The notes below the pieces were generated by a model. It saw only the letters and a list, made by a program, of their open reading frames with translations. It had not been told where the DNA came from and did not search any database. A DNA stretch of 64,000 nt from Escherichia coli (GTDB taxonomy: Bacteria; Pseudomonadota; Gammaproteobacteria; Enterobacterales; Enterobacteriaceae): assembly GCF_003790525.1 (NCBI RefSeq), contig NZ_CP033635.1; one strand, 5' to 3'. Shown piece by piece: positions 58,059 to 58,914 of this stretch; positions within the stretch are counted from its first letter, which is position 1; the number at the start of each line of letters is the position of its first letter. Position numbers and translations under genes: made by a program.

Positions 58059-58264
58059 ACGTATTCGCTCAGGCAGGGGGCGCTGGTTGGGAACTCAACG
58101 TTGGCATGGTTTCGCTGCTCTTGTGTAGATGTGTTGCAGTTATTTGCGACATTCCGCCGGAGTAGCGGAACTATGGAAAACGGCAATTGGCGCTCTTATC
58201 CCTTAGCTTTGTAAGGCTTAATTTTGGTAGAATGGGGAATCGTTTAACGGAAAAAAACAATCAG

Positions 58265-58759
58265 ATGATTTCTTTTCTATCCGATGAATTTGAGGAATTT
58301 CCGCAGGGAGATTTTTTAAATCATCTCTATAGGTTTTCGGTAGACCATCATCATTTTATCGTGATATTTAGCCCTATTGATATTAGCGATGCGGAGTACC
58401 ATCAATACCGTAGCGAGGAAGTTGGATTTGAAATCCCAACTAATTGTTTTGATGTGAAATTTGATAGGCAAGAAAACTTTGATAGTGGTAACTTTTACAT
58501 GCCCCCCGCCGCAACTGAATGCTCGAGGCGCAGACGCTTTACTGATGAACTCGCAGAGGCGCTAGCAACGATTATTGAAAAGCATTACATCATTTATCAT
58601 GCCAGGGCTTATCTTGCCATCGCAGAGAATGACAAGTTGAAACGTTACTATGACCGGATTTTACACAATGCCCCGGCTAATGTAGCATATAGAGTAATCA
58701 AAGATGTTGGAGAGGAGGAACGAGGTTATGCCATACAAACCGAATGTTTCCGAACTTAA
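58265..58759 (+). CDS. hypothetical acidic protein, about 164 aa (start uncertain; maximal ORF from TTG at 58187, alternative ATG at 58232)
   Basis: ORF-track 58187..58759; visibly AT-rich; HHH and YHxY motifs; no family recognised. Confidence 0.55.
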   Translation: MISFLSDEFEEFPQGDFLNHLYRFSVDHHHFIVIFSPIDISDAEYHQYRSEEVGFEIPTNCFDVKFDRQENFDSGNFYMPPAATECSRRRRFTDELAEALATIIEKHYIIYHARAYLAIAENDKLKRYYDRILHNAPANVAYRVIKDVGEEERGYAIQTECFRT

Positions 58760-58874
58760 GAAAATGACTGTTGCAGAGCGCAAGAAAGAAGCCATGCGCC
58801 AGCTTAAAGCATCCTTTGAGCGCGCCAGCATTGAAGGGACTTTGCATAAACGCTCTGCAAAGTCTGTTGCGTAA
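58728..58874 (+). CDS. hypothetical small basic protein, 48 aa (MPYKPNVSELKKMTVAERKKEAMRQLKASFERASIEGTLHKRSAKSVA)
   Basis: Below the ORF-track size cut-off; translated by hand; ATG preceded by GAGGAGGAA Shine-Dalgarno 7 nt upstream, lying inside the 3' end of the preceding ORF (32-nt overlap); followed by a terminator. Confidence 0.55.
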   Translation: MPYKPNVSELKKMTVAERKKEAMRQLKASFERASIEGTLHKRSAKSVA

Positions 58875-58888
58875 TGAAAGATTTCAAT

Positions 58889-58914
58889 AACCCGCTGCGG
58901 CGGGCCTTTTTTTG
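58889..58914 (+). terminator. rho-independent terminator after the 48-aa ORF
   Basis: CCCGC-TGCG-GCGGG hairpin followed by CCTTTTTTT. Confidence 0.75.

Follow-up and report, generated by a model that had tools for sequence, protein, structure and literature searches.

A horizontally mobile two-gene cassette of Escherichia coli encoding a predicted GNAT-like protein and a conserved microprotein partner

The GNAT/DUF1778 systems TacAT, AtaRT, KacAT, and ItaRT are two-gene modules with overlapping reading frames that are mobile and are found on both plasmids and chromosomes. In KacAT, the C-terminal strand-helix-helix segment of KacA wraps around the GNAT toxin KacT, and R77 impairs acetyl-CoA binding (PMC6698736). 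In Salmonella, TacT acetylates K44 of TacA, its own partner, and CobB removes this acetylation (PMC5449658). Here we describe a cassette of likewise compact layout in a 64,000-nt window (the whole stretch of DNA that was analyzed) from the chromosome of E. coli SMS-3-5; positions 58060-58960 of the window match NC_010498.1 at 100% identity. The AT-rich cassette, which is ~880 bp long, is placed between nanQ and a remnant of yhcG. It contains a large gene, whose acidic product has a predicted GNAT-like fold, and a small gene that overlaps the 3' end of the large gene and encodes a basic microprotein. The cassette is a mobile two-gene module that combines a protein of predicted GNAT fold with a novel microprotein partner, in some lineages together with a fused sirtuin-like domain, and it matches no curated family.

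The Transferred Unit and Its Two Genes

Comparison of related loci makes it very likely that the cassette is a real, self-contained, and horizontally mobile two-gene operon. Serratia oryzae (locus L019, 3825-4704) carries a sequence that is 92% identical to window positions 58088-58968 over 882 aligned bases, and the sharp ends of this match delimit the extent of the transferred unit. An unrelated contig from a mobile element (L010) matches 58092-58930 at 67% identity, and this match takes in ~170 nt of leader as well as a motif directly past the terminator. The unit of ~881 bp (58088-58968, on the plus strand, as are all of its parts) comprises a leader, a promoter, two genes, a terminator, and a conserved tail. 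Because S. oryzae carries these 881 bp at 92% identity, the unit was clearly transferred horizontally.

Within E. coli, the unit is present in 28 of 5,426 complete genomes, always on the chromosome, at the same site, and with at least 99.7% identity. A pattern-based scan of ~100,000 species representatives found it in six species, which is a lower bound because the wide alignment was too divergent for a pattern scan and the narrow one was used. There were eight matches among 72,556 plasmids and none in a tblastn search of 50,697 phage records. The gene pair, the overlap, the ribosome-binding site, and the terminator recur in more than 20 loci and in at least 10 unrelated contexts, which include Enterobacterales chromosomes, large plasmids, phage-plasmid-like replicons, and marine Gammaproteobacteria. 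On chromosomes, the neighboring genes are nanQ and the truncated yhcG in E. coli, cstA and an entH-like gene in Kluyvera, an aminotransferase gene and crp in Morganella, and kdsB and a DUF218 gene in a Proteus-like bacterium; Hafnia and Rahnella are further chromosomal hosts of the pair. No integrase, transposase, or other recombinase accompanies the unit. A preliminary description of this DNA had proposed a horizontally acquired module, and that proposal is strongly supported by the small share of E. coli genomes that carry the unit, by the S. oryzae copy, and by the occurrence of relatives at unrelated sites, on plasmids, and in mobile elements.

The small gene (58728-58874; WP_012311706.1, a "hypothetical protein" in the RefSeq annotation) encodes a basic protein of 48 residues with an isoelectric point (pI) of 10.3, and its open reading frame (ORF) overlaps that of the large gene by 32 nt (58728-58759), as the preliminary description had it. 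In each of the 28 E. coli genomes with the unit, the annotation includes both ORFs. An overlapping small ORF (17-50 nt of overlap) was present in every locus examined, distant relatives and sirtuin fusions included. The loci that we read came from the chromosomes of Kluyvera, Morganella, the Proteus-like bacterium, Hafnia, Rahnella, and S. oryzae, from an IncFII-type plasmid, from an unidentified mobile element, from plasmids of Yersinia, Serratia, and Klebsiella, and from uncultured marine bacteria. The small ORF has 42-51 codons in all readable loci, with the exception of a distant Klebsiella plasmid copy (L028), in which it has 139. A core motif, ERKxxAMRQLKASF...EGTL, is still recognizable in small proteins whose large partners share only ~25-38% identity. 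In the nonoverlapping codons of the small gene, the proportions of nonsynonymous (pN) and synonymous (pS) differences between the plasmid copy L008 and the L010 element were 0.039 and 0.694, respectively; outside the overlap, the median pN/pS over all pairs was 0.44, similar to the value of 0.38 for the large gene. As judged by these sequence comparisons, the small ORF is under purifying selection, and both genes are real. The preliminary description had named lack of conservation of the small ORF as a finding that would tell against it, and the ORF proved to be conserved across genera.

It could be argued that an ORF of only 48 codons that belongs to no database family is a chance overlap and that the large gene alone is functional. 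This is extremely improbable, and we consider it effectively refuted, given how well the small ORF is conserved: every locus examined has an intact copy, at partner identities of ~25-100%; the ORF has its own Shine-Dalgarno sequence and ATG; synonymous changes far exceed nonsynonymous changes outside the overlap; and its product is confidently structured in the fused model presented below. Production of the small protein by programmed frameshifting was ruled out by the presence of its own conserved ATG and Shine-Dalgarno sequence everywhere.

Two observations concern individual copies of the small gene. In Klebsiella variicola (L026, 6464-6607) and Serratia sp. JSRIV002 (L029, 5470-5625), the microprotein gene is intact and is omitted from the plasmid gene tables; the PLSDB gene table is incomplete, and the original records may annotate the gene. 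The L028 locus (4716-5694), on Klebsiella pneumoniae plasmid pKP35_2, holds a distant member of the large-protein family (26% identity) with an overlapping partner of 139 residues, of which the first ~45 are microprotein-like and the other 95 have no Pfam match. This pair adjoins an integrase gene, and the plasmid has the phage-like genes phoH and Gp49.

The large ORF is annotated by RefSeq from a TTG at 58187 to 58759 (WP_001196760.1, "hypothetical protein," 190 residues). The true start is very probably not this TTG, which the preliminary description had also used, but the ATG at 58265, 26 codons downstream, because the homologs are 162-165 residues long and begin at the equivalent methionine, because the conserved -10 element falls within the 190-residue reading frame, and because S. 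oryzae has an A-run in its leader that is shorter by 2 nt, so that the extension is out of frame there. On this reading, the large gene spans 58265-58759. Translation from the ATG gives a protein of 164 residues with a pI of 5.1 and a net charge of -11, in keeping with the acidic protein of ~164 residues of the preliminary description. Its relatives formed only 14 clusters among 5.8 billion clustered proteins, and a profile search of 1.84 billion representatives returned 68 clusters; the family is small but genuine.

Conservation upstream of the large ORF points to a predicted promoter with the extended -10 element TGGTAGAAT (58225-58233). Copies in E. coli, S. oryzae, and Kluyvera, on the L008 plasmid, and in the L010 element all have the pattern TGnTA(A/G)AAT about equally far upstream of the large ORF. 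A consensus promoter scan did not list TGGTAGAAT, because it has no -35 element. The leader of the large gene is A-rich and has no clear Shine-Dalgarno sequence. The Shine-Dalgarno sequence of the small gene, GAGGAGGAA (58712-58720), falls within the 3' portion of the large gene, ~9 nt upstream of the ATG of the small gene, and all close relatives have a purine-rich GGAGG- or GGGG-like site at the equivalent position. Beyond the small gene is an intrinsic terminator (58891-58913) with a 5 bp, all-G:C stem and a 4-nt loop (58891-58904, CCCGCTGCGGCGGG) followed by a T7 run (58907-58913); it is the sole terminator-like site in 57900-59200. Almost all loci have a hairpin and T-run 3' of the small gene, in a sequence that varies between lineages; these are absent or unclear in the Rahnella locus L024 and in L016-L018.

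These signals had been noted in the preliminary description. The candidate -10 element is present and is conserved in other copies, the Shine-Dalgarno sequence inside the first ORF is the one given above, and the terminator recurs in nearly every related locus. The description of the cassette as AT-rich and as following the nan genes is likewise borne out, with a GC content of 0.35-0.47 over 58200-58950 versus 0.55-0.63 in nanE and nanK and 0.54-0.63 in the operon beyond.

Predicted Structures and Possible Functions

At the level of predicted structure, the assignment of a divergent GNAT-like fold to the large protein is solid. AlphaFold2 (AF2) modeled the large protein alone with a predicted local distance difference test score (pLDDT) of 76.8 and a predicted template modeling score of 0.78. 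The structures in the comparison include Elp3, AAC(6') enzymes, siderophore acyltransferases, Rim-type enzymes, and the TacT2 toxin; the nonenzymatic antizyme scores 7.1. The GNAT fold is a mixed beta-sheet with a beta4-alpha3-beta5-alpha4 core, and a strand-helix-strand-helix core like that of the acyl-CoA-binding half is predicted at residues 61-68, 92-111, 115-119, and 123-133. Among 40 diverse members of the family, Y129 is invariant, and F24, F35, F66, D67, L96, H107, Y116, A120, and L125 are nearly so. In the fused model, Y129 lies in the helix at 123-133 and D67 in the strand at 61-68; going by the order of these elements and not by a superposition, the two residues would occupy the general acid/base positions of many GNATs, often a tyrosine in helix 4 and an acidic residue in strand 4. 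The pyrophosphate-binding motif A (Q/R-x-x-G-x-G/A), which precedes helix 3, is fitted by RRYGFA and RRFGFA in L010 and Kluyvera.

Pfam returned no match to the E. coli large protein even at E ≤ 10 and none, with no Acetyltransf model, for the 40 diverse members, and searches of NCBIfam and Pfam with both proteins gave zero matches. PHROGs gave only chance-level matches, to the small protein (E 0.003-0.09), and sequence-profile searches of the PDB with narrow and wide alignments gave nothing meaningful. A Foldseek comparison with viral structures yielded weak GNAT-like matches only (best E 2e-4, template modeling score ~0.55). A literature search on WP_001196760.1 and WP_012311706.1 returned no paper naming either. 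The earlier statement that neither protein belongs to a known family is true at the sequence level, with no match in NCBIfam, Pfam, or PADLOC, and the large ORF did not turn out to be a gene already known to have a function.

The two products probably form a complex of a GNAT-fold protein and a dedicated microprotein. We modeled them with AF2 as a single chain, in which a 30-residue Gly/Ser linker joined the two proteins, from a paired alignment of 20 large and small pairs. All five models scored 74-78. The pLDDT of the microprotein was 80, 90, 95, and 86 over successive ten-residue blocks (linker below 50), and as values this high are not usual for a 48-residue peptide in isolation, a specific complex is likely. 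The microprotein is predicted to form two helices (7-12 and 15-36) followed by a short strand at 40-43. Compared with the model of the large protein alone, its C-terminal region is predicted with more confidence and has two additional strands (142-148 and 154-159). The charges of the partners, taken as whole-protein values and not as surface patches, are complementary: 37 of 40 members of the large-protein family are acidic (median pI 5.36), and the small protein has a pI of 9.3-11.4 in all 20 pairs. Conserved microprotein residues fall on one face of the helix, where R18 is invariant and E17, K19, M23, K27, and A33 are nearly invariant in the 20 pairs. Two natural frameshift variants, in which the frames of the large and small genes are joined, are a further hint of binding. 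The coupled two-component module that the preliminary description had envisaged finds support in the conserved overlap, ribosome-binding site, and terminator and in the confident fused-chain model.

By analogy with described modules, our tentative reading is that the cassette may work like a type II toxin-antitoxin or addiction module, in which the GNAT-like protein would be the effector and the microprotein its inhibitor. The effector would be made at a low level from a leader that lacks a Shine-Dalgarno sequence, and the microprotein would be made in excess from a strong ribosome-binding site; this excess of the small protein is predicted from the strong Shine-Dalgarno sequence of the small gene, set against none for the large gene. 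The microprotein would bind the effector through its helix face (R18/K19, M23, K27, and F30) and its C-terminal strand and would keep it inactive, and loss of the element or a block in host gene expression would free the effector. In favor of this reading are the two-gene layout and the patchy distribution over plasmids and chromosomes, as in type II modules; what is seen of such modules here is a compact bicistronic operon, with a predicted complex, and a patchy distribution that arose by transfer. Sporadic occurrence and recent transfer, as seen for the unit, are typical of selfish modules of this kind, and the wrapping of KacT by KacA is a precedent (PMC6698736). The damaged copies that we saw also fit it, as in all of them the large protein is cut short and the small frame preserved. 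The toxin-antitoxin-like or small defense or regulatory pair that the preliminary description had suggested is plausible.

The damaged copies are two in which independent one-base frameshifts in the overlap fuse the two frames, one in Kluyvera genomosp. 3 YDC799 (L021, 4001-4612) and one in P0014. The L021 fusion is 203 residues long, and the fused proteins lose the last strand of the large protein. They may be real decay or fusion events or may reflect homopolymer sequencing errors. No locus examined combined a disrupted small ORF with an intact large one.

Several observations weigh against this toxin-antitoxin-like reading. In its N-terminal half, the large protein departs from the common pattern, in that four strands precede the first helix and the usual two GNAT helices are missing, and the acetyl-CoA motif is not conserved in the 40 members (RRRRFT in E. 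coli; KSMVFS and RDISFP in others). The GNAT-like protein is acidic, so it is unlikely to bind tRNA as TacT, AtaT, and KacT do, and its partner is encoded downstream and has no recognizable DNA-binding domain. The fused-chain model came without contacts or predicted aligned error and gives no docking site for the microprotein. Finally, searches of PADLOC-DB 2.0 (E ≤ 1) and NCBIfam matched no toxin-antitoxin or defense model to either protein.

The translation signals and the frameshifts also bear on the reverse assignment of roles, in which the small basic protein would be the effector (for example, a toxin that binds nucleic acid or the ribosome) and the acidic GNAT-like protein would neutralize it by sequestration or modification. 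A neutralizer encoded first, with an acidic first product and a basic second one, is the usual type II layout, and the charge complementarity is conserved. In type VII systems, the antitoxin neutralizes the toxin by modifying it, and the enzyme-like fold of the upstream product would suit a modifying antitoxin of that kind. We nevertheless consider this assignment unlikely: the strong Shine-Dalgarno sequence on the small gene and its absence from the large gene predict an excess of the small protein that would be unexpected for a toxin, both natural frameshifts affect the large protein and spare the small one, which is the opposite of what is expected if the large protein is the antidote, and a soluble, helical toxin of 48 residues with no membrane segment has few precedents.

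Some relatives of the large protein are 342-347 residues long and carry the family domain at the C terminus, with a CobB-like domain of ~190 residues in front of it. These fusions occur in Aliivibrio, Enterovibrio, Marinomonas, Alteromonas, and marine metagenomes, and their name in AFDB is "Deacetylase sirtuin-type." Residues 2-105 matched the NCBIfam CobB-type deacylase models with E values of 6e-10 to 7e-8, far below the curated cut-offs, and the match to Pfam SIR2 had an E value of 0.002; the NCBIfam match covers the NAD-binding and catalytic half, and the motifs GAGLS...GLPTY and H-x-Y-G are visible in the fused domain, which is shorter than typical sirtuins. The defense-type SIR2 models of PADLOC gave only marginal matches of ~25 residues. 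The overlapping small ORF and the terminator were kept in all three of the fusion loci examined.

The fusions raise the possibility of a nontoxic acyl switch, in which the GNAT-like protein would be an acyltransferase, the lysine-rich microprotein would be its substrate or regulatory subunit, and a sirtuin (host CobB in trans or the fused domain in cis) would remove the mark. We regard this as possible but not probable, and give the same weight to the idea that such a pair would act on mobile elements as a small sensor or regulator of acetyl-CoA/NAD+ state and not as poison and antidote. The position of the CobB-like domain in front of the family domain in the marine relatives, the retention of the small ORF and terminator in the fusions, and the closer resemblance of the fused domain to housekeeping deacylases than to defense SIR2 models all agree with it, as do the basic residues on one face of the microprotein helix and the precedent of the TacT-TacA-CobB circuit (PMC5449658). 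However, no lysine of the microprotein is universal (one distant member has R in place of K19, and the sirtuin fusions lack K27), and the sirtuin matches fall far short of the cut-offs. Furthermore, a writer-eraser switch alone fails to explain the selfish, sporadic spread of the unit on plasmids and in intergenic sites. It is quite unlikely, though conceivable, that the family represents a previously undescribed mobile class of acyl switch in which a GNAT-like enzyme acylates, or is gated by, a microprotein of 40-50 residues and a sirtuin (CobB or fused) resets it. A toxin-antitoxin logic built on such a switch is just as doubtful; there, acetyl-CoA/NAD+ state would be converted into growth arrest, for addiction or abortive infection, and acylation of the antitoxin, not its proteolysis, would be the trigger.

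The surroundings of the plasmid copies bear on a further explanation, that the unit is an anti-defense or establishment factor of plasmids and phage-plasmids, which would for example acylate or sequester a host defense protein, and was later captured by chromosomes. The copy on the IncFII-type plasmid lies between parA and a block of ArdC, PLD-nuclease, SSB, and coupling-protein genes, and in two phage-plasmid-like Serratia replicons the neighbors are a portal gene and a very large SNF2-related gene annotated as a methylase. GNAT-fold anti-CRISPR proteins exist, and the autonomous transcription unit resembles that of a moron. We find the explanation improbable all the same, as there was no match in the phage records, the proteins match no known anti-defense family, the neighbors are inconsistent between loci, and most copies are chromosomal and intergenic, far from transfer genes. 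On plasmids of Yersinia, Serratia, and Klebsiella, the neighbors are MazEF, RelB, a HepT-MntA-like pair (nucleotidyltransferase/DUF86), hha, DUF4145, P-loop NTPases, and pifC. An immunity protein of a polymorphic toxin was considered and rejected, given that no toxin gene adjoins the unit, which in every context brings its own promoter and terminator.

If the toxin-antitoxin-like reading is correct, the family would be a second, architecturally different lineage of GNAT-fold effector modules, and its acidic effector would probably not be directed at tRNA, so that its target and chemistry would be new. The recurrent fusion to a CobB-like domain makes a link between addiction or defense functions of mobile elements and acetyl-CoA/NAD+ state directly testable. 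The unit may also be an ordinary addiction module, and if it encodes a neutral accessory enzyme, its significance would be modest. The cassette adds a well-supported, conserved microprotein gene that some annotations miss. As a self-contained unit of ~0.7 kb that is absent from E. coli K-12, it should be easy to clone.

The E. coli Insertion Site and Flanking Features

In the RefSeq annotation, the genes nanR-nanA-nanT-nanE-nanK-nanQ precede the cassette on the plus strand. On its other side, on the minus strand, are a 123-nt internal fragment of yhcG (58968-59090; a DUF1016/PDDEXK pseudogene) and an operon of five genes (59096-64000 and beyond; L001 13037-20477) that encode a VWA protein, a DUF5682 protein, an ATP-binding protein (ATPase), a DUF5691 protein, and a SWIM zinc-finger protein and are followed by gltD. 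The ordinary E. coli interval consists of nanQ, a convergent and intact yhcG, and gltD. Homology to it ends at the nanQ stop codon (~58059-58067) and restarts at ~58966, in the yhcG fragment. The 3' part of yhcG has been replaced by the cassette and the 5' part by the five-gene operon, and the 123 nt are the whole remainder; this loss on both sides implies two events or one composite event. The five-gene operon, which we take to resemble the yehLMPQ cluster of K-12, is contiguous with the cassette only in the same 28 E. coli genomes.

Other insertions are found at the same place. E. coli 04A19CPO007 (L033, 3535-3840) has a different hypothetical gene, of 101 codons, at the junction of nanQ and yhcG, and yhcG is again truncated; in a third E. 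coli lineage, the junction holds a transposase gene (H30). The nanQ/yhcG junction looks like a small hot spot for insertion.

The leader contains a palindrome, TTCCGC-N7-GCGGAA (58152-58170), which was read from the sequence and its relatives and lies upstream of the promoter. In the L010 leader, the hairpin is CTCCGC-N8-GCGGAG, with both arms changed and the pairing kept, and in S. oryzae it is TTCCGC..GCGGAG. The hairpin is limited to the lineage of E. coli, S. oryzae, and L010 and is missing from more distant copies. It may be an operator, an insulating hairpin, or the remnant of an upstream terminator, and it is the one lead toward autoregulation of the operon, which is a property of type II modules. 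A 37-codon ORF in the leader (58101-58214) was rejected, as its frame is broken in S. oryzae.

The right end of the unit is marked by a conserved tail, CCCTCAGAAAATCCCC...CAACCTTCAGTTA (58915-58968), which S. oryzae shares as far as 58968 and L010 over the first 17 nt. A search of the 881-bp unit for terminal repeats found nothing convincing. A 16-nt inverted match of 81% pairs 58062-58077 with 58936-58951, with its left arm outside the unit shared with S. oryzae, and an 8-nt motif, AACT[C/G]AA, occurs near both ends (58091-58099 and 58953-58962); these short matches at the unit ends are too short to tell from chance. An Rfam search of 57900-59200 gave one subthreshold match, to anti-hemB (17 bits, against a gathering score of 49.5), which we took as chance.

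Comparison with Known Systems

In layout, the cassette resembles "morons," the autonomous accessory transcription units of phages and plasmids: it brings a promoter and a terminator of its own, differs in base composition from its surroundings, and lies between unrelated genes on many replicons. That term, however, denotes a layout and not a function, and the cassette was found in 0 of the 50,697 phage records. Ornithine decarboxylase antizyme, which appears in the structural comparison, is eukaryotic, is unrelated in sequence, and is not part of a two-gene mobile module; in contrast to it, the family described here keeps an invariant tyrosine and a nearly invariant aspartate at positions that would be typical of active GNATs.

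The TacT-TacA-CobB circuit consists of a GNAT enzyme, a partner that it acetylates, and a sirtuin, and the relatives that fuse a CobB-like domain to the family domain and keep the small partner recall this combination. The sirtuin of that circuit, however, is a separate housekeeping enzyme, and the partner is an antitoxin that binds DNA.

The GNAT/DUF1778 systems differ from the cassette in several respects. They have the antitoxin gene upstream, whereas here the gene for the GNAT-like protein comes first and its partner is downstream. Their antitoxins are ribbon-helix-helix proteins, whereas the 48-residue partner has no DUF1778 and no other Pfam or NCBIfam match. Their toxins are basic and bind tRNA; the large protein, on a whole-protein basis, is acidic (pI 5.1, charge -11). 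They have no detectable sequence homology to the cassette, whose GNAT-like protein has an N-terminal arm without the canonical helices. The closest parallel is with KacAT, as the short partner with a helix, a strand, and an invariant arginine is reminiscent of the wrap of KacA and of its R77 (PMC6698736). In its proposed workings, the cassette is most like the GNAT/DUF1778 systems, but it lies outside that family.

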